IMG/VR virus record: IMGVR_UViG_3300028394_000001
Span: 64,001 to 128,000 of that record
From: a virus
Length of the DNA stretch: 64,000 bases
Strand: one strand, 5' to 3'
Under the pieces are notes generated by a model, which saw nothing but the letters and a program-made list of their open reading frames with translations, searched no databases and had not been told where the DNA came from. Positions 5,559 through 53,235 of the stretch are shown here, piece after piece. The translations under genes and the position numbers were made by a program. The first letter of the stretch is position 1, and each line of letters opens with the position of its first letter.

Positions 5559-6182
5559 ATGACAAACGTATGGAATAAAACCGATACCCCAGAAACACCA
5601 GGTAACTTTGGACATCCAGAGTGGCCTGTTCAACGCCAAGTTAGAACTGTTGCACAACTAGTTACATCCAATTTGACAGTTACTGGCGCAACAACGATTA
5701 AATTTACACTTCCAGCAGCTGTTTCCACTGTTGGTCTTGCCGCTGGTCAATTTGTCAATCTTCTAGGTGGTGGTTCAGCAGTTGCAAACCTTTCTTCAAA
5801 TGGTTCTCCTGGAATGTTCGTTTCGAATAACACTGTTGCTTCTGTTTCTGCAAATTTGGTTGTATTAACAACCGGTGTTACAGGAAACATTGCGGCAGGA
5901 TCAACGATTGGTTTTGATGCAGCTATTGTAAGACCTACAGGTGAAGTTTCTGCAACTTATTACGCAGATACAGTTCTTGCAACAGATTCTAGAATTACTA
6001 ATGCTAATAATAAAATTGGCGGTTCAGTCAATACAGGTTGGGTTCACGTTAGAAAGAAAACAAATGGTTTAACTGGTGAAGTTCGTTACATTAGAGAAAC
6101 TCTGGTTTGTTTGACTGATGCTTCATCCGTAAACACTGCTGGTGGTAACACTTCATGGGGTAGAGCATTCGCTAATACCTAA
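5559..6182 (+). CDS. Putative virion structural protein
   Basis: Thr/Val/Gly/Ala-rich beta-type composition; GWV...R...ETLV C-terminal motif; late promoter-like site upstream. Confidence 0.55.
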   Translation: MTNVWNKTDTPETPGNFGHPEWPVQRQVRTVAQLVTSNLTVTGATTIKFTLPAAVSTVGLAAGQFVNLLGGGSAVANLSSNGSPGMFVSNNTVASVSANLVVLTTGVTGNIAAGSTIGFDAAIVRPTGEVSATYYADTVLATDSRITNANNKIGGSVNTGWVHVRKKTNGLTGEVRYIRETLVCLTDASSVNTAGGNTSWGRAFANT

Positions 6183-6197
6183 TGTAATCTTTTTATA

Positions 6198-6587
6198 ATG
6201 AATTTTGATGACCTAAATGAAGACAACTTTGTGATGTATGCAGTAAAATGTTATACATCACCTAGTTGTTTAATGTCTGAGTTTGAGGGAGACTTAAAAA
6301 GAACAAAATACCTAAAAAGGTTATTTCGTAGATATAAGGCAACTAAAAACATAAAAGAAAGACTAATTCTCAATCATATTATTCTCTTAAATAATGTATT
6401 CGGACCTGAAGCAACTTCCAGAATATTGTTTTTTAGAATTGATGAGAAGGATTACGATTCACTAAAGACATTTCTGTTATTCTTAAATATATTGCCAAAG
6501 GTAATAAAGGGTATAAGAGGTAAACACATAGATACAGATTTAATATCAGTAGACATGAAAATAGCAGACATACTAAGAAACATATGA
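6198..6587 (+). CDS. Conserved T4-like phage protein (DUF7207-like)
   Basis: EFEGDLKRTKYLKRLF...RLILNHIILLNNVFG motif. Confidence 0.7.
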   Translation: MNFDDLNEDNFVMYAVKCYTSPSCLMSEFEGDLKRTKYLKRLFRRYKATKNIKERLILNHIILLNNVFGPEATSRILFFRIDEKDYDSLKTFLLFLNILPKVIKGIRGKHIDTDLISVDMKIADILRNI

Positions 6588-7099
6588 TAACATTCAAACA
6601 ATTCCTAGAAGAAAAGAAAACCCTAAGAAACACAAATCCATGTTGGACTGGTTATCATCCAATTGGTACTAAACAAAAGGGTGGCCGAACAGTTCCTAAT
6701 TGTGTTCCAGAAGAAGTGGAAGCAATGTTCGATATTATTGAAGAACTGGTCATGGAAATCTCAGAAGTACACCATATTGATCCTGAAATCATTTGGGAAG
6801 AACTTGCAGATGTATCAGATGAAGAACTATACGAATCTGCTGCATGGAGACGCAGCGAAGGTAAAGATCCTAAGGGTGGCTTGAACAGAAAAGGTATCGC
6901 ATCTTATCGCCGTGAAAATCCAGGTTCGAAGTTAAGTATGGCAGTAACTACAAAACCATCAAAATTAAAACCAGGTTCTAAAGCAGCAAATCGCCGTAAA
7001 TCATTTTGTGCTAGGATGGGCGGTATGCAAGGTGCAATGAAAAAACCTAATGGTGAACCTTCACGCAAAGCTTTAGCACTGAGAAAATGGAATTGCTAA
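6584..7099 (+). CDS. Conserved T4-like protein (DUF6321-like), putative internal head protein
   Basis: N-terminal MITFKQFLEE; CWTGY..VPNCVPE module; AAWRRSEGKDPKGGLN...RRKSFCARM...ALRKWNC. Confidence 0.65.
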   Translation: MITFKQFLEEKKTLRNTNPCWTGYHPIGTKQKGGRTVPNCVPEEVEAMFDIIEELVMEISEVHHIDPEIIWEELADVSDEELYESAAWRRSEGKDPKGGLNRKGIASYRRENPGSKLSMAVTTKPSKLKPGSKAANRRKSFCARMGGMQGAMKKPNGEPSRKALALRKWNC

Positions 7100-46037: not shown

Positions 46038-46802
46038 ATGGCAAGCAATAGAAAAACAGCAATACAAAAACGTGATGATTCAATTGAAGGTGATGAGGTA
46101 ACACACAGACACCAACCCGTTTCAAACTCACTAAAAATAAAATTAGACCATTTAAAAACATTTGAAGCACTAACACAAAATCAACAAAAGTTCTTTGACG
46201 CATACAAAACAGGTGATTACTTTATTGGCCTATTAGGATCACCAGGTGTAGGTAAAACATTCTTAGCATTGTATCGTGCAATCGAAGAAGTATTAAACAA
46301 GGATAATCCTTTTACACATATTGTAGTTGTTCGTTCCGCTGTACAGGTAAGAGACCAAGGTTTTGTTCCTGGTACATTGGATGAAAAGATGGAGATTTAT
46401 GAAGTGCCTTACAAAGAAATTTGTGAGACACTTTTTGGTCGTTCTGATGCATGGGAAAGATTAAAGGAACAAGGTTACGCTAGATTCATTTCAACTACCG
46501 CTATTCGTGGTATCTCTATTGACAACTCTATCATTATTGTAGATGAATGCCAGTCAATGACATTTCATGAATTGAGTTCGGTTATCTCCCGTGTTGGCCA
46601 TCGTTCAAAGATTATATTTGTTGGTGACCTGAAACAGAATGACCTAATTAAGAGTAAACATGATATATCGGGCCTTGCTGAGTTTTTGAATGTTGCAAGA
46701 CATATGGATGAGTTTACTGAAATTTTATTTACACCAAACGACATTGTTCGCAGCAGTTTGGTCAAATCATGGATTGTTGCCTGCGATAAATTAGGAATAT
46801 AA
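46038..46802 (+). CDS. phoH: PhoH-family ATPase
   Basis: GSPGVGKTF, RG.SIDN, VDECQ, GDLKQND and DIVRS motifs. Confidence 0.93.
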   Translation: MASNRKTAIQKRDDSIEGDEVTHRHQPVSNSLKIKLDHLKTFEALTQNQQKFFDAYKTGDYFIGLLGSPGVGKTFLALYRAIEEVLNKDNPFTHIVVVRSAVQVRDQGFVPGTLDEKMEIYEVPYKEICETLFGRSDAWERLKEQGYARFISTTAIRGISIDNSIIIVDECQSMTFHELSSVISRVGHRSKIIFVGDLKQNDLIKSKHDISGLAEFLNVARHMDEFTEILFTPNDIVRSSLVKSWIVACDKLGI

Positions 46803-47398
46803 TGATTGATGATGTGTTATGTATTGAAGGTATCTTTGATGATCCGCAAGAAATTATAAATTTGGCGAAGAAACAAAGATACTATTCTTGTGAAGATAAT
46901 CCTACAGTAAAAAATACAAATATCAAGTATAGTGGTGAGAGAACCGACCATTTAGCCAACATATTGAGTGATGGTGAATACTATGAATTAACTAAGAAAA
47001 TCATAAGTAAAATATTCAAAAATGTACCATCGTCAAATATAAAGGCTCAAATTATTTGTTTGTTTCACTATCTAACTGAAATGGACATACCGAACAGTTC
47101 TTGGATACACAAAGATACATCATTGTATTCTGGTGTGATATATTTAAGTGAAGGTTTCAATGATAAATATAATAACCATGGTACCAAAATAATCATAGGC
47201 CGTGACGTTTTAAATTACCGCAATGAATTCAATAAGTTAATCCTATATCGTGGAGACTACTCACATTCGGCTAATTTTGGTTTTGGTCAAACTATAGATA
47301 ATTCAAGACTAACATTAAATTTCTTCATAAATGAAATAATGATTGATATGAAAAATGAAAATAAGGTAAAAGAGAAATACTATGATTACAAAACATGA
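46802..47398 (+). CDS. 2OG-Fe(II) oxygenase (DUF6445-like)
   Basis: WIHKD, SGVIYL, FNKLILY...HSA and RLT..FF give an HxD...H triad plus Arg. Confidence 0.8.
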   Translation: MIDDVLCIEGIFDDPQEIINLAKKQRYYSCEDNPTVKNTNIKYSGERTDHLANILSDGEYYELTKKIISKIFKNVPSSNIKAQIICLFHYLTEMDIPNSSWIHKDTSLYSGVIYLSEGFNDKYNNHGTKIIIGRDVLNYRNEFNKLILYRGDYSHSANFGFGQTIDNSRLTLNFFINEIMIDMKNENKVKEKYYDYKT

Positions 47399-47966
47399 AT
47401 GGTGGTCAACACCTGTTTGGGAGATTGAAACAGGATTTGATGAATATTTTAATTTGTGTTTTAGAAATGAATTACTTGATTTGATTTGTGCAAGTGAACA
47501 TAACAAATATGTCGATATTTGGACAGTAGATTCCGACTATTGCAGACAATTGAAGAATAAAATATATGAAATGATGGATTTAATTTTACCTGAATATTTT
47601 TCAAACTACCACGAATCAAAACCCTTTATATCAAATGGATGGGTGAATCAGCAAAAACCAGGACAATCATTTCCACTACACAGTCATGGTGAAAGTGTGG
47701 TGGCTTGCGTGTATTATATAGAAACTTATGAGAATAGTGGTGACCTTCTGATAGTAGATCCAAGGGGTTCTGTTGTTTGGGATTTGAATGTTGAGAATGG
47801 TGTAAACTCAGTAAAATATAAAAGAATTACACCAAAGGCAGGTAAAATGGTCTTATTTCCATCGTATCTATTACATTCAGTTGAAGAAAATAAGTCAGAA
47901 AAAACAAGATTTGGCATTGCTACAAATATACATATTCCCACGAAACACTATATAAATGACAGATAA
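47382..47966 (+). CDS. 2OG-Fe(II) oxygenase (TIGR02466 / 2OG-FeII_Oxy_5-like)
   Basis: W..TPVW, HSH, VYY, DPRG and FPSYLLHSVEEN..R.GIA.N motifs. Confidence 0.88.
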   Translation: MITKHEWWSTPVWEIETGFDEYFNLCFRNELLDLICASEHNKYVDIWTVDSDYCRQLKNKIYEMMDLILPEYFSNYHESKPFISNGWVNQQKPGQSFPLHSHGESVVACVYYIETYENSGDLLIVDPRGSVVWDLNVENGVNSVKYKRITPKAGKMVLFPSYLLHSVEENKSEKTRFGIATNIHIPTKHYINDR

Positions 47967-47971
47967 ATAGA
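47963..47971 (+). promoter_or_regulatory. Late promoter-like motif ATAAATAGA upstream of the Cys-rich gene
   Basis: Same 9-mer and similar leader and GGAGAA RBS as at 5521 before the putative structural gene. Confidence 0.55.
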
Positions 47972-47993
47972 CCATATCTTCGGAGAACAAAAA

Positions 47994-48395
47994 ATGACAT
48001 TACCAAACACATCTCAAGGAATATCTTTTCAAAATATAAGAGATGAAACGGGCCAACCTGCGGGTTTTTCCGCATCTATGCAATGGGTCAAGGACAACAG
48101 CAAACTCACAAAAGGCGGCGCCACTGGTGTTATTAATGACATGGGATCCCTACGCGATAAGGCATATTATAGAGATAATACTTCAGGCAATTGTAGTAAT
48201 GGTAATTGTACATCTAATTGTAATTGCGGTAATAAAAATTGCAGTAATTGTATTATTACTGGCACCGTAAATTGTGCAAATTGCGATGCTTCGGCTTTTA
48301 TCCAACCGAATTGTAATTGCAATTGTACATATAATTGTACCACTTCGTCAACATCTTTTAACTGTGATTGTTGGATCTGTGCTTGTACTTGGTAA
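47994..48395 (+). CDS. Asn-Cys-repeat protein; putative RiPP-like precursor or substrate of the adjacent radical SAM enzyme
   Basis: 66-aa Cys-free N-terminal part; residues 67-133 hold 16 Cys, 13 as NC; ends WICACTW; GGAG RBS. Confidence 0.8.
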   Translation: MTLPNTSQGISFQNIRDETGQPAGFSASMQWVKDNSKLTKGGATGVINDMGSLRDKAYYRDNTSGNCSNGNCTSNCNCGNKNCSNCIITGTVNCANCDASAFIQPNCNCNCTYNCTTSSTSFNCDCWICACTW

Positions 48396-48416: not shown

Positions 48417-49901
48417 ATGATTTTTGAAATTAATGCGGAGCGTAGTGCTTCAGACGTAAAGACTTTTTATTATGATAATGAAAAAAATATACTTTCAGAT
48501 TCTACTGGATTTGTTTATGAGTATCCGGAACCACAGATTCCACAACCCGTAACAGGTACAGGCTTGGAGTTATTCCATAAATGTGAAGAGGTTAAACCCT
48601 TTGATAAAAATACTCCACTAAAAAAATCAAAAGATGTTACTGTCATTAAAATCCAATTAGGTTTATCATGCAACTACTCTTGTGATTACTGCTCACAAAG
48701 GTTTGTTGAAAGGCCACCAGAAACTAGTAAAAAGGATATTGAATCTTTCATCTCTAAGTTGGATAATCTAAACATTACAGAAAAAGCTGGACTAAGAGTT
48801 GAATTTTGGGGTGGTGAACCACTTGTCTATTGGAAAACATTAAAACCTCTCGCTGAAACAATTGCTGAGAAATTTTCTCATTGGAAAAAGAAACCATCTT
48901 TTGGCATGGTGACTAATGGATCACTATTGACAAGAGAAATATGTTCTTGGTTATATTATATGGGTTTTGGTGTTGGTATTAGTCATGATGGTCCAGGTCA
49001 ACATGCTCGTGGTCCTGATCCATTTGAAGATCCAGAAAAAAAGAAAATCATCTTAGAGTTTTATAAAGTAATGCATTCCCAAAATCGTATTAGTTTTAAT
49101 TCTATGATGAATAGAAAGAATACTAGCCGCAAACAAATCCATGATTGGTTTGTTAATTTAACAGGTGATCCTACTGTTCCAATTGGTGAGGGTGGTTTTA
49201 TTGATGCATATGATGAAGCCGCTATCAATAGTTCATTAGAAACAAAACAAGAACATTTTGAATACCGAAGAAATGCATTTAATGATATTTATAGTACAGA
49301 TAATACAGATGAACAAATTAATTTTGGTATTATTAATGACAAAACAGACATGTTTGTTCGTGGTGTTTTGAATCACACTGAATCTAAATTTGTTGGTCAA
49401 AAATGCGGAATGGACAACGAAGGAACAATTTCTGTAGACCTCAAAGGTAACATCACAACTTGCCAAAATGTTTCTATAATGGAAACCAGTAAAAACGGTG
49501 AGTCACACTTAGGTGGTAACTTAGATGATTACGAAAATGTTGAACTGAAATCTGTTACTCATTGGATGAACCGAGCAGGTTGTAAGGATTGTCCTGTGTT
49601 GCATTTATGTAAAGGTTCTTGTATGTACCTTGACGGTAAATTTTGGGATATAACTTGCAATAATGCTTATAGTGATAATGTTGTTTTCTTTGCTTTAGCT
49701 CTGGAAAGAATTACAAATGGTTACATACCAACTAAAATTAAAGGTGATGGATTAGCTTTAGAAAGACAAGACATTTGGGGAACACTATATGAACACAAAG
49801 AAGTTGAAAAGAAAAAAATGATACCAATTAAAATTATAGCAGAAAAAATTGGTATGTTAAATGATGTTGAAATTTACGGACAATCAAGAGTAGAGGCATA
49901 A
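48417..49901 (+). CDS. Radical SAM / SPASM-domain peptide maturase-like enzyme
   Basis: CNYSCDYC, WGGEPL, VTNGSLL and ISHDG; SPASM region KCG...GNITTC...CKDCPVLHLCKGSC...C. Confidence 0.92.
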   Translation: MIFEINAERSASDVKTFYYDNEKNILSDSTGFVYEYPEPQIPQPVTGTGLELFHKCEEVKPFDKNTPLKKSKDVTVIKIQLGLSCNYSCDYCSQRFVERPPETSKKDIESFISKLDNLNITEKAGLRVEFWGGEPLVYWKTLKPLAETIAEKFSHWKKKPSFGMVTNGSLLTREICSWLYYMGFGVGISHDGPGQHARGPDPFEDPEKKKIILEFYKVMHSQNRISFNSMMNRKNTSRKQIHDWFVNLTGDPTVPIGEGGFIDAYDEAAINSSLETKQEHFEYRRNAFNDIYSTDNTDEQINFGIINDKTDMFVRGVLNHTESKFVGQKCGMDNEGTISVDLKGNITTCQNVSIMETSKNGESHLGGNLDDYENVELKSVTHWMNRAGCKDCPVLHLCKGSCMYLDGKFWDITCNNAYSDNVVFFALALERITNGYIPTKIKGDGLALERQDIWGTLYEHKEVEKKKMIPIKIIAEKIGMLNDVEIYGQSRVEA

Positions 49902-49902
49902 A

Positions 49903-50538
49903 ATGAAAGTTACAATCACACAAGAATTGCAGAATTGCATTAACCTTTTAAATTCTATTCCTGCTGTAAAATCAGTTGCAGTATCTGAAGCTTCAGACAT
50001 TATTAAATCACAAATTAAAAATGTAGACTCTTTCGTATTCAGTTTAACTAACGAGATGGGTAATACAATTAAATATATTATTCCTAAAAATGCGATTATT
50101 CGTGCAACAACTCATCCAGTGGAAGATTTTATGGATATTGTTAATGTTATAACACAAAGACTACAATTCTTAGATGAAAATACGAATCCAGATTGGATTG
50201 AACCTTGTTATTATAATAATATCGAAACAACTAGAGTTGAAGTGGTCAGAGAAGATATAGCACCAATTGCCGCAAATACTGAATTGCAATTATTAGTGAA
50301 TAGTTTGGAGGATCTACCTGGACTATTTAATGTTAATGTTTATTCATTAACATCAGGCAATGCCGATAGTGTATTTTTTACTTGTGATATTATTGAACAT
50401 CCTCGAGGTGGAAAAATTAATTTTGTGGTGCCTTTTAGTACATGCACAAATCTCGAAATGCATTCACAACTGATTGATAATGCAAATGAGTTATTCGAAC
50501 AAGCAAAAACAGGAAATACAACAACTAGTCAATCTTAA
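49903..50538 (+). CDS. Unknown protein with an internal two-fold repeat, starting 1 nt after the rSAM stop
   Basis: LQNCINLLNSIPAVKSVAV..NVDSFVF..GNTIKYIIP vs LQLLVNSLEDLPGLFNVNV..NADSVFF..GGKINFVVP. Confidence 0.7.
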   Translation: MKVTITQELQNCINLLNSIPAVKSVAVSEASDIIKSQIKNVDSFVFSLTNEMGNTIKYIIPKNAIIRATTHPVEDFMDIVNVITQRLQFLDENTNPDWIEPCYYNNIETTRVEVVREDIAPIAANTELQLLVNSLEDLPGLFNVNVYSLTSGNADSVFFTCDIIEHPRGGKINFVVPFSTCTNLEMHSQLIDNANELFEQAKTGNTTTSQS

Positions 50539-50544
50539 AATATT

Positions 50545-51201
50545 ATGAGAATCGAGAATATTTTTGGTTATAACATAACAAGAATACAATGTACAAATGA
50601 ATCTCTCTATAGAGATAATGAAATAACCAAAACGGTTAACAATGTATTTAATTTTCCAAAAGTTCAAAGTAGAGATAGAACACTCAAGGGAGATTCTCAT
50701 AAAGGTGCAGGTCTAACCACGGTTAGTGAATCATACCTTTCTTTAGTAAATCTACCGGGTTTTGGTAATTTAACTGAATGGATTACACAGCAATTTTTAT
50801 TGGCAAAAGAACCTTTGGGGCTTGACAATAAAGGAAATATCGTGTATTATAAGAGAAGTTGGGCAAATAGGTTATTTCGTGGCGGCCATGGATTATGCCA
50901 TAATCACAATAAAGTGGATAACTATATTGCGAGTCTTACGGATTATACAAATGAAAATTTTAGACCAGATGCTGTTGGTATTTTTTATCTTGATGTGCCG
51001 GAAGCTTCATCAAATTTAGTCATAGTTAAAGATGGCAAACCTGAGACTTGGATTGATGATTATGTAGAAGAAGATACTCATTGGATACAACCAATAGAAG
51101 GAGAGTTATTAATACACTCTCCTGATGTATATCATGCTGTGAGTGTTCATCACAATAATTTACCTCGTAATGTTTTTGTTTTTGATATTGAATATGTTTA
51201 A
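50545..51201 (+). CDS. 2OG-Fe(II) oxygenase
   Basis: SWAN, HNH, VGIFY and EGELLI...HAV...RNVFVFD motifs. Confidence 0.8.
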   Translation: MRIENIFGYNITRIQCTNESLYRDNEITKTVNNVFNFPKVQSRDRTLKGDSHKGAGLTTVSESYLSLVNLPGFGNLTEWITQQFLLAKEPLGLDNKGNIVYYKRSWANRLFRGGHGLCHNHNKVDNYIASLTDYTNENFRPDAVGIFYLDVPEASSNLVIVKDGKPETWIDDYVEEDTHWIQPIEGELLIHSPDVYHAVSVHHNNLPRNVFVFDIEYV

Positions 51202-51718
51202 AAAGAATCTTTTTGCAACACCAATTTGGCAAAGAATATTGCCAATTGAATTGAACAATGGATTATTAGAAGAATCTACTCAATTTGATGGTAATATATT
51301 TGATATGAACCTAACATATACAAATAAACTAAAAAACATTATTAGAGAATTATACATCAACATCAACTATGAATACATACTTGAAGAACGCACAATTCAT
51401 GGTAGACTGAATATAATAAATTATGGAGAAAATGATACACCACACAGTCACATAGGTAAATCACTTTTAGTTGGTGTCTATTATTTGGATGTTGAGATTG
51501 ATACGGGTGACCTTTTGTTACACGATCCCAGAGGTGGTGTTGTTTGGGATAATTTAGATTTTGAACCGAATGACCCTATAAAAGGAAAAACTTCCAGAAC
51601 TTATCATAGAATTAAACCTGTAAACGGATTATTAATTATGTTTCCTGGATATTTGGTACATTCAGTAGAAAACAATATGAATAAAAAACCAAGAAAGTCG
51701 ATAGTTATTAACATATGA
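51194..51718 (+). CDS. 2OG-Fe(II) oxygenase (TIGR02466-like)
   Basis: LFATPIW, PHSH, GVYY, HDPRG and FPGYLVHSVENN..RKSI motifs. Confidence 0.88.
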   Translation: MFKKNLFATPIWQRILPIELNNGLLEESTQFDGNIFDMNLTYTNKLKNIIRELYININYEYILEERTIHGRLNIINYGENDTPHSHIGKSLLVGVYYLDVEIDTGDLLLHDPRGGVVWDNLDFEPNDPIKGKTSRTYHRIKPVNGLLIMFPGYLVHSVENNMNKKPRKSIVINI

Positions 51719-53235
51719 AATATACAATATTGGGTGGCGGAAGTGCTGGTTGGTTAACTGCATTGTTCATTAGAAAAATTTGTCCAGATGATGAGGTAAC
51801 TGTCATTGCTAGCTCCGAAATTGGAATTTTAGGTGCAGGTGAAGGCACTACACCTCAATTTCCTATGTTTCTTAAAAAGATTGATATATCGGTTCATGAT
51901 ATAATTAAAAACGCTAAAGGAACATTTAAGAATGGAATTAAATTTACTAATTGGAATGGAGATGGTGAACATTACTATCATAACTTTCAAGATTCATTAG
52001 TAAATTTCGAAGATTACAAACACATTGATGTTAATCCCTATGCTTTAAATAACATTTCAAACCATGAAAATTTAGATAGCTTGAATTTTACTCCACTCAT
52101 ATCTGAAAAAAATAAAGTAAAATATATAAAATCTAATGATAAAGAATGTGGATCGGATGCGTTACATTTTGATGCAAATTTATTAGCCAAATATTTTCAA
52201 ACTGTTGGTTTAGAAAGAAATATTAAACTTGTTGATGATGAAGTTATTTCTGTTGATTCAAAGGACAATAAGATTGTTGGATTTAATTTAAAATCAAATA
52301 ATAAGATAGATACGGATTTTGTTTTTGATTGTTCTGGTTTTAAAAGATTTCTAATTGGTGGCCACTACAAAGGTAAATGGAATTCTTATAATGACCATTT
52401 ACCAATGAAACGAGCGATGCCTTTCTTTGTTCAGAACGACACTAAAGAGATTCCACCATACACAGAAAGTATTGCTATGAAGTATGGTTGGGTTTGGAAG
52501 ATTCCGGTACAAGGTCGATTTGGTTGTGGTTATGTGTTTGATTCGGATTTGGTGTCTGATGAAGAAATCAAAAAAGAGTTGGAGGAATATTTTGGACATG
52601 AAATTATAAGTCCAAGAACATTCACTTTTAATCCAGGTTGTTTTGAAGAGGTGTGTATAGGTAACTGTATTGCTATTGGTTTATCAGCCGCTTTTATTGA
52701 ACCACTTGAAGCGACAAGCATATGGGTTACCATTATGCAATTGACTGAATTTGAAGCGAATAAAAACAAAATCTTAAACGACTCTGGTGATTCTATTGAA
52801 TCATATAATCAAACTATTAAGGCAATAAACAGAGACATTTTAAACTTTATACAATTACACTATTTAACTAATCGTAATGATAGTGTTTTTTGGAATACTT
52901 TTAAAGTAAAAAACAAGGTATTACCGCAAATAGAAGGTCTTAAAGAATTGTGTCAAGATAAAATTCCAGAATCTCACAATTTAAAATACCTTACATTAAC
53001 AGAAAATATTAACATAGGTTGTTCGCGTAGTAACCATCGGGGTATTTTTTCCGAAACAAGTTGGCATCAAGTTGGTGCCGGCATAAAATTCTTTAAAGAA
53101 GATATTGCAAGAAAAGTTTTGGATACTGAATATCCAAATTTTAAAAATGAGGTTATATTTCAGGACTTTTTTGAAAAAAATAGTGAACTGTTATATGACC
53201 ATTACGATTACATAGAGAAATTAAAAAATGTTTAA
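51715..53235 (+). CDS. Flavin-dependent tryptophan halogenase family protein (PrnA-like)
   Basis: GGGSAGW, GAGEGT, FK.GIKF.NW, WVWKIP (WxWxIP) and FIEPLEATSI motifs. Confidence 0.92.
   Translation: MKYTILGGGSAGWLTALFIRKICPDDEVTVIASSEIGILGAGEGTTPQFPMFLKKIDISVHDIIKNAKGTFKNGIKFTNWNGDGEHYYHNFQDSLVNFEDYKHIDVNPYALNNISNHENLDSLNFTPLISEKNKVKYIKSNDKECGSDALHFDANLLAKYFQTVGLERNIKLVDDEVISVDSKDNKIVGFNLKSNNKIDTDFVFDCSGFKRFLIGGHYKGKWNSYNDHLPMKRAMPFFVQNDTKEIPPYTESIAMKYGWVWKIPVQGRFGCGYVFDSDLVSDEEIKKELEEYFGHEIISPRTFTFNPGCFEEVCIGNCIAIGLSAAFIEPLEATSIWVTIMQLTEFEANKNKILNDSGDSIESYNQTIKAINRDILNFIQLHYLTNRNDSVFWNTFKVKNKVLPQIEGLKELCQDKIPESHNLKYLTLTENINIGCSRSNHRGIFSETSWHQVGAGIKFFKEDIARKVLDTEYPNFKNEVIFQDFFEKNSELLYDHYDYIEKLKNV

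Follow-up and report, generated by a model that had tools for sequence, protein, structure and literature searches.

Organization of the locus

The Cys-rich gene described here lies on the plus strand of a stretch of viral DNA of 64,000 nucleotides (in the following called the window), which comprises bases 64001–128000 of the IMG/VR record IMGVR_UViG_3300028394_000001. The source record has 170,520 bp, direct terminal repeats and a G+C content of 37%. As PHROG matches were found to a major head protein, a scaffold, a tail tube, baseplate wedge proteins and PhoH, we assign the genome, which comes from freshwater, to a T4-like myovirus. The gene, its two domains, its upstream signals and the enzyme gene that follows it are located in the window as listed below.

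47963..47971, plus strand: T4-type late-promoter-like motif ATAAATAGA, 24 nt 5′ of the start codon, beginning with ATAAATA at 47963
47982..47987, plus strand: Shine–Dalgarno sequence GGAGAA, 6 nt 5′ of the ATG at 47994
47994..48395, plus strand: open reading frame of the Cys-rich protein, 133 amino acids (translation)
47994..48185, plus strand: N-terminal module, residues 1–64, putative fibre-docking domain (AlphaFold 2 model, profile search, hhalign)
48186..48395, plus strand: Asn/Cys-rich head, residues 65–133, and stop codon; putative substrate of the radical SAM enzyme (16 Cys, C-terminal CWICACTW)
48417..49901, plus strand: radical SAM/SPASM maturase, 494 amino acids, 21 nt 3′ of the Cys-rich gene (PF04055 and TIGR04085 above cut-offs)

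By reading the sequence directly we could confirm the motif ATAAATAGA and the ribosome binding site GGAGAA upstream of the gene, which had been reported in a preliminary description of the locus; the motif overlaps the TAA stop codon of the upstream 2-oxoglutarate (2OG) oxygenase gene. The 16 cysteines of the protein are all found within residues 67–131, 13 of them in Asn-Cys dipeptides, and tryptophans are present at residues 31, 127 and 133. A signal peptide is absent: within the first 65 amino acids the highest Kyte–Doolittle mean over a 15-residue window is 0.1, and the N-terminus is not hydrophobic. When related sequences are compared, the Cys/Asn scaffold of the head is invariant and variable stretches are seen at residues 87–92, 99–102, 116–120 and 127–128. 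In the AlphaFold 2 model, residues 1–64 reach a predicted local distance difference test score (pLDDT) of 71–87.

The protein belongs to no family in Pfam, PHROGs or NCBIfam, and the same holds for the N-terminal module when searched alone. Sequence searches of the PDB with two profiles gave nothing meaningful, fold searches of the PDB with the model of the protein (VIA-align, Foldseek) gave no match, and the head has neither a relative in the PDB nor a match to Gly_rich_2. In a viral fold library the model found one member of its own family and otherwise weak leads, and the ESM Atlas returned unnamed viral clusters only. A prediction of a three-copy complex, run without controls, scored 0.01, which weighs neither for nor against trimerization.

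A late-promoter-like motif precedes the gene

The T4-type late promoter has the sequence TATAAATA, with which the motif of this genome agrees. A NATAAATA motif is found shortly upstream of the start codon of the Cys-rich gene, as is the case at the structural genes of this genome. Genome-wide, ATAAATA occurs at 37 sites on the plus strand, which is no excess over the expectation from base composition. Twelve of these sites are situated 15–40 nt upstream of a plus-strand gene start (in 5000 random placements the average was 1.09 and the highest count 7), and in the windows 15–40 nt upstream of gene starts ATAAATA is the commonest heptamer of its composition. Eight of the 10 genes with this arrangement code, according to PHROG, for the head–tail adaptor, the tail tube, the scaffold, the major head protein, the baseplate cap, two baseplate wedge proteins and the tail-fibre assembly protein. 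The preliminary description had compared the Cys-rich gene with a putative structural gene at 5559; the same ATAAATAGA...GGAGAA arrangement is indeed present there, but the label "structural" is unverified as no PHROG family matched this open reading frame.

Pattern scans of viral contigs yielded 140 confirmed Cys-rich stretches, and 80 loci were kept for the context counts. ATAAATA is kept 20–45 nt upstream of the Cys-rich gene in 40 of these 80 related viral loci, among them loci with the order radical SAM gene, motif, Cys-rich gene. A scan of the gene island for sigma-70 promoters and terminators gave nothing above shuffled controls. Given the placement of the motif, its association with structural genes and its conservation, transcription of the Cys-rich gene late in infection is well supported in silico.

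A late motif would suit any structural role, also that of a decoration or protective protein situated elsewhere on the virion (head, whiskers or baseplate). In the T4-like lineage the Cys-rich knot would then provide stability and not receptor binding. The high conservation of the head scaffold and the distance of the gene from the fibre genes in T4-like genomes would be in agreement with such a role. We nevertheless consider it quite unlikely, as the gene order in other lineages and the sibling proteins sharing the N-terminal module (see below) point specifically to fibre tips.

A radical SAM/SPASM enzyme accompanies the Cys-rich gene

The enzyme encoded directly downstream of the Cys-rich gene has the motif CX3CX2C at residue 85 and the SPASM motif CX2CX5CX3C at residue 389, and its TIGR04085 score is 32.2 against a cut-off of 27. 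Partial matches to the geopeptide, PapB, QhpD and CcpM maturases are all far below the family cut-offs, and no named equivalog (PapB, QhpD, CcpM, SCIFF, geopeptide) is reached, the best score being 83.8 bits against a cut-off of 400. We classify the protein as an enzyme of the maturase type, acting on peptides or proteins; its family has no name.

At 90% identity the relatives of the Cys-rich protein fall into 119 clusters of about the same length and 131 clusters of longer proteins. In all of the 80 viral loci a radical SAM homologue (41–93% identity) adjoins the Cys-rich gene on the same strand, in either order, and a same-strand radical SAM neighbour is also present in loci of a Polynucleobacter-associated contig, of Paraburkholderia and of a Lishizhenia metagenome-assembled genome (CAZHPL010000154). 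Other genes are less regular companions: a halogenase homologue is found in 19 of the 80 loci, about 51 have a 2OG oxygenase close to the Cys-rich gene, and PhoH together with the exonuclease is found in the T4-like subset.

Among the 50,697 phage records of GenBank, neither megablast of the island nor tblastn of the Cys-rich protein gave a match, and relatives were reached only via the radical SAM gene. Its closest relatives in sequenced phages are found in Ralstonia phage RSP15 and in the Achromobacter phages JWF and 2-1 (44–48% identity). In the two regions which we read, those of RSP15 and JWF, the radical SAM gene lies inside the tail-fibre module; in RSP15 (NC_030948, 33501–46856) the 44% identical enzyme is encoded between the tail-fibre genes and the gene of a 1615-amino-acid protein.

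The pairing of a precursor with a radical SAM/SPASM enzyme, the presence of extra tailoring enzymes and the fact that the nearest families of the maturase are maturases of ribosomally synthesized and post-translationally modified peptides (RiPPs) could also be explained by a classical RiPP system. In such a system the N-terminal half would be the leader for the radical SAM enzyme, and the Cys-rich core would undergo tailoring, be cleaved off and be released at lysis as a toxin, a signal or a killer of competitors. However, Pfam and PHROG scans of the ten genes of the island revealed no protease, transporter or exporter and no immunity gene, and the N-terminus matched no known RiPP leader family. 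In addition, the supposed leader is common to proteins that follow fibre genes and have no radical SAM neighbour (apart from one weak match of 24% identity), and the fusions to self-cleaving S74 and Hint domains as well as the motif in the JWF fibre, both described below, would make no sense for a leader–core peptide. Because of the missing export and immunity genes, the common "leader", the self-cleaving fusions and the JWF fibre motif, the released-toxin explanation is weak and in our view very unlikely.

The N-terminal module is common to proteins encoded next to tail fibres

A profile of residues 1–64 has 451 protein matches with E ≤ 1e-3. Of the best 140 matches, about 30 have C-terminal domains other than the Cys-rich one and start with MTLPASGxISxxxINVELG. 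The N-terminus of the type M(A/T)LPxSGxISxxxIxxE(F/L)G, which the preliminary description had likened to the start of small phage tail-fibre-tip or adhesin-like proteins, is therefore real. The heads of these sibling proteins are Gly_rich_2 (PF21722) or beta-rich domains matching tail-fibre PHROGs. Aligned by hhalign, the N-terminal modules of the window family and of the glycine-rich adhesin family match with 98.5% probability (E 1.7e-15). We regard the N-terminal 60 residues as a module that is exchanged between proteins.

In 80 viral loci the non-Cys siblings are encoded at most 10 nt downstream of a fibre gene. In 21 of them the fibre ends with a Peptidase_S74 intramolecular chaperone domain (S74), and in about 28 it ends with ...SSGNLxxLxN(V/I)TAYGTP. 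The latter sequence, ...N(V/I)TAYGTP, corresponds by its letters to the end which S74 cleavage would leave. Beyond the one weak match mentioned above, no radical SAM gene was seen in the sibling loci. The sibling profile matches gp38 of phage S16 (6f45_D, E 4.8e-6) and a GFP-gp38 structure (9v85_A, E 3e-6) in the PDB, and the head of the sibling model matches the Pam3 fibre (Z 11.5) and also the tail tip of Bxb1.

In one T4-like relative (PhoH 75% identical) the island between PhoH and the exonuclease contains, behind CATAAATAG, a sibling of the glycine-rich type, which we read as a head swap at a syntenic site. T4-like relatives (L129, positions 6001–6996; L106, L115 and L167) carry the N-terminal module with a glycine-rich or another beta-rich head, without a radical SAM gene, in or beside this island. 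Judged by its gene content, the PhoH–exonuclease island behaves like a swappable host-range cassette.

The Cys-rich half is linked to tail fibres

Eight non-T4 viral loci, which do not have the late motif, show the order tail fibre (PHROG), Cys-rich gene, radical SAM gene. The stop codon of the fibre gene and the start codon of the Cys-rich gene overlap or abut in these loci, and most of the fibres end with ...GNVxxY|SDxRLK and an S74 domain. The Polynucleobacter-associated contig and a prophage of Paraburkholderia (sp. BCC1886), located on a contig of 286 kb, show the order S74 fibre, Cys-rich gene, radical SAM gene as well, again with overlap or abutment of the first two genes. The former contig (NZ_JACVPJ010000020, Polynucleobacter sp. 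JS-Safj-400b-B2) comes from a freshwater assembly and has a length of 28.7 kb and a high coverage of 277; it probably represents a phage present in the culture, which would be a candidate experimental system.

The Cys-rich core occurs alone or together with one of three domains, namely S74, Hint or a domain of about 170 amino acids. The S74 fusion (PF13884 above cut-off) begins directly after the last CxC (...CDCFW|SDDTLK...), and so does the Hint fusion (PF05203 above cut-off). The window protein has neither S74 nor Hint and ends at Trp133, which is the junction where its homologues bear these domains. S74 domains are found on trimeric fibres and spikes as folding aids that remove themselves by self-cleavage afterwards. 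Most frequent among the homologues, with about 42 of the 80 loci (L006–L075; P0131, P0143 and P0198), is a form of about 300 amino acids, in which the domain of about 170 amino acids follows after ...CNCSK; in these loci the radical SAM gene precedes the Cys-rich gene. This domain is characterized by IICAKLY..AADQ..YRGY..PWSEHMA and a hydrophobic end, YTMWxLFYxSYYTS, and has no name in Pfam, PHROG or the Atlas. It may represent yet another removable module, the fourth, or serve to anchor the protein in a membrane. That three different removable modules are placed at one junction suggests that a free C-terminus is important or that folding needs a C-terminal helper.

In phage JWF (NC_029075) the motif is part of a fibre. 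The tail fibre gp028 contains ...QNCNCDCNCNCSC and ...PRQNCNCDCNCNCSC followed by a Hint domain; the Asn-Cys stretch, with the motif QNCNCxCNCNC, is picked out by the profile of the Cys-rich family. The radical SAM enzyme gp030 (46% identity) is encoded two genes downstream of gp028.

The position downstream of fibre genes is also that of known chaperones, and the Pam3 fibre requires a downstream chaperone (PMC9608196). The Cys-rich protein might accordingly be a tail-fibre assembly factor of the T4 gp38/Tfa chaperone type, which would be made late, bind the tip during folding and not be kept in the virion. We regard this as unlikely. The heads of the siblings match receptor-binding domains (gp38 adhesin, Pam3 gp24) and not chaperones, and in JWF the Asn-Cys motif belongs to the fibre polypeptide itself. 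Heavy enzymatic tailoring and swappable heads would also be easier to reconcile with an exposed part than with a helper that acts transiently.

Putative tailoring enzymes and other genes of the island

The island consists of ten genes on the same strand, which were scanned with Pfam and PHROGs, with PhoH at the upstream end and a PD-(D/E)XK exonuclease at the downstream end. The following genes surround the Cys-rich gene and the radical SAM gene.

46802..47398, plus strand: DUF6445/2OG-oxygenase-like protein (PF20043 weak, below cut-off; phrog_1644)
47382..47966, plus strand: 2OG-Fe(II) oxygenase (PF13759, 67.5 bits; phrog_81)
49903..50538, plus strand: 211-amino-acid protein downstream of the radical SAM gene, no family (Pfam, PHROG, NCBIfam)
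50545..51201, plus strand: 2OG-Fe(II) oxygenase-like protein (phrog_81, E 7.8e-11; in 20 of the 80 loci)
51143..51718, plus strand: 2OG-Fe(II) oxygenase (PF13759, 51.9 bits)
51715..53235, plus strand: flavin-dependent Trp-halogenase homologue, 506 amino acids (PF04820, 311 bits against a cut-off of 21)

The halogenase homologue has the motifs GxGxxG, WxWxIP and FxEPLE in the form GGGSAGW, GWVWKIP and FIEPLEAT (translation and alignment to 5hy5). Its closest structures are SttH, PyrH, PrnA and RebH (about 1e-52), and the cyanophage enzyme VirX1 follows with 3.5e-43. A C-terminal ...CxCW is present in 19 of the 19 stand-alone Cys-rich forms whose locus has a halogenase gene and in 0 of the 17 others; the latter loci include T4-like ones with a flank of 10 kb on each side. 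With the caveat on its origins given below, this is suggestive of a halogenase that may act on the Trp at the end of the Cys-rich protein. Trp-halogenase genes are present in 61 phage records, and we know of no native substrate that has been established for a phage flavin-dependent halogenase. The closest halogenase of a cultured phage (39% identity) is that of Pelagibacter phage HTVC008M (NC_020484, 63198–65157). There the halogenase and a 2OG oxygenase are encoded between the small and the large terminase genes, in the late structural module; four further 2OG genes are close by and no radical SAM gene is present. Virion proteins may be a more general target of the halogenases of phages.

The 211-amino-acid protein has a tblastn match in only two loci, and a gap of similar size follows the radical SAM gene in many T4-like loci. 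The protein resembles two repeats of about 100 amino acids (ELQNCINLLNSIP... and ELQLLVNSLEDLP...) and may assist the system as a rapidly evolving helper or chaperone. The two 2OG reading frames 50545–51201 and 51143–51718 overlap by 59 nt as listed, the second beginning with GTG, and in reality this second gene probably starts further downstream.

PhoH and 2OG genes are typical auxiliary genes, and a protein with 16 Cys in 67 residues might be an intracellular metal- or iron-sulfur-binding, metallothionein-like protein, the nearby enzymes serving the takeover of the host and not the modification of the protein. This appears highly improbable to us in view of the pairing with a peptide-maturase-type radical SAM enzyme in 80 of 80 loci, the fibre synteny and the fusions. 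Another conceivable role of the CxC motifs would be the binding of metal along the axis of a trimer, comparable to the HxH iron sites of T4 gp37.

Comparison with known systems

The adhesin gp38 is monomeric and is held on the tip of the fibre by an N-terminal attachment domain (PMC12032242). The Cys-rich protein is similar to gp38 of the T2/S16 type (PDB 6F45) in being a small modular protein with a putative N-terminal attachment module and a scaffold with variable segments, and the siblings share with it the position downstream of a fibre gene. The pattern of invariant and variable positions in the Cys-rich head also recalls the layout of gp38, in which conserved motifs alternate with hypervariable segments. 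On the contrary, the head of gp38 is a polyglycine-II sandwich, whereas the window protein has an Asn/Cys-rich head with a dedicated radical SAM enzyme and no polyglycine. Furthermore, the gp38 gene follows the fibre gene, and the Cys-rich gene of the window genome does not adjoin fibre genes. Pam3 gp24 (PDB 7YPX) docks by an N-terminal helical domain (PMC9608196) and is a simplified fibre with a docking domain and a receptor-binding head; the match is to the head of the glycine-rich sibling and not to the Cys-rich head. Pam3 gp24 is docked to the baseplate and has no enzymatic cross-links, unlike the tip proposed here.

With respect to the chemistry, the ranthipeptide and sactipeptide maturases have the same radical SAM/SPASM architecture and act on Cys-rich substrates (PMC12373016). 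In all 80 loci the gene of a Cys-rich substrate candidate lies beside a radical SAM gene with CX3CX2C and SPASM motifs, as in these systems. The enzyme of the window shares its architecture with those of the PapB type (NF047865) but does not reach any equivalog cut-off, and its presumed substrate differs from the ranthipeptides as it is a two-domain protein of 133 amino acids without a sign of leader removal. PapB, CteB and NxxcB are maturases of the ranthipeptide or sactipeptide type, and the thioether acceptors reported include Asn.

In the Qhp system, which matures quinohemoprotein amine dehydrogenase, the small Cys-rich subunit QhpC is cross-linked by the SPASM radical SAM enzyme QhpD, and one Trp of this subunit is subsequently modified by QhpG, a flavoprotein related to halogenases. 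The likeness is that the Cys-rich substrate stays a protein and is not released as a peptide, and that a radical SAM enzyme is combined with a flavoenzyme modifying Trp. The scores against the Qhp families TIGR03906 and NF049967 are, however, far below the cut-offs (73 versus 453 bits and 16.7 versus 240 bits, respectively). In addition, the Qhp system is a periplasmic enzyme, whereas the flavoenzyme of the window is of the true halogenase type (PF04820, WxWxIP) and is proposed to work on a phage fibre. VirX1 (PDB 6QGM) is, like the enzyme of the window, a phage protein of the Trp-halogenase family; in the present case a candidate substrate Trp co-occurs. The pair gp028/gp030 of JWF has the same motif, radical SAM family and Hint junction as homologues of the window protein of about 300 amino acids. 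In gp028, however, the motif is a short tail with a single Asn-Cys block, and not a head of 70 residues, on a mature fibre of about 300 amino acids that does not have the N-terminal module.

A full-text literature search found no paper on a phage fibre or virion protein matured by a radical SAM enzyme. One study on cyanophages lists a radical SAM maturase as an "antibiotic synthesis gene" and names no substrate (PMC12801897).

Proposed role of the Cys-rich protein

We suggest that the product of the Cys-rich gene is probably a late-expressed, virion-associated, adhesin-like protein of the tail-fibre tip and not an exported leader-plus-core peptide. The proposal of the preliminary description, a late virion protein rather than a secreted toxin, is hence supported by the comparative evidence, namely the late motif, the N-terminal module, the synteny and fusions with fibres including that of JWF, and the lack of export genes.

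According to our model residues 1–64 would be a widely common docking module, which would attach to the C-terminal tip of a trimeric fibre after the S74 domain has cleaved itself off. In the present genome the candidate for docking is a fibre of 1723 amino acids (150242–155413 of the genome) which ends with ...GNVVAF|SDIKLK and S74. Residues 65–133 would form the exposed head with its invariant Asn-Cys scaffold and variable segments. The adjacent radical SAM/SPASM enzyme would mature this head in the infected cell, and the likeliest chemistry, by analogy to related SPASM enzymes, would be the formation of thioether cross-links from Cys to carbon, giving a small knot that does not depend on disulfides. 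To judge from the co-occurrence of the genes, the 2OG oxygenases of this clade are likely to hydroxylate the head, and the C-terminal Trp is the probable target of the flavin halogenase. That the protein is made late, is part of the virion, docks on this fibre and binds the receptor is predicted from comparing sequences and models, and so is its entire chemistry.

Several observations weigh against this model. In the window genome the Cys-rich gene is about 38 kb away from the fibre genes and is placed among "auxiliary" genes such as PhoH and 2OG oxygenases. The Cys-rich half could not be modelled (AlphaFold 2 pLDDT < 50) and has no structural relative, and the match of the N-terminal module of the sibling model to the attachment domain of gp38 is weak (Z 3.1, root-mean-square deviation 2.3 Å over 45 residues). 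The domain of about 170 amino acids with its hydrophobic end, which is present in the commonest form of the family, is not explained by a tip protein. Phage RSP15 has the radical SAM enzyme, and no Asn-Cys-rich protein was found either near this gene or genome-wide, so that the enzyme family may have other substrates. Finally, on a quick tree of the radical SAM enzymes the Trp/halogenase state falls into two clades; since one or two origins suffice to explain it, the association between halogenase and Trp is weak as statistics.

It is possible, and we put this forward tentatively, that many phages from water and soil build a fibre tip with an Asn-Cys head knotted by a radical SAM/SPASM enzyme, and that in one clade this head is decorated by 2OG oxygenases and by a halogenase acting on the C-terminal Trp. 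To our knowledge, receptor-binding proteins of phages have not been reported to depend on dedicated tailoring enzymes of the RiPP type. As members of the family are carried by a phage in culture and, within a prophage, by a cultured Paraburkholderia, the proposal can be tested at the bench.

If our proposal is true, phages use the chemistry of peptide antibiotics for their host-recognition hardware. It would mean a new mode of building a head, in which a cross-linked knot of Cys and Asn replaces the polyglycine sandwich of gp38. Should the more tentative reading with the halogenase also hold, the Cys-rich protein would be the first virion protein that is enzymatically cross-linked and halogenated, and a native substrate of phage halogenases. 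The model would also explain the radical SAM/SPASM genes in the tail modules of the cultured phages JWF and RSP15, and it would provide a testable candidate substrate for the Trp-halogenase genes of the 61 phage records.

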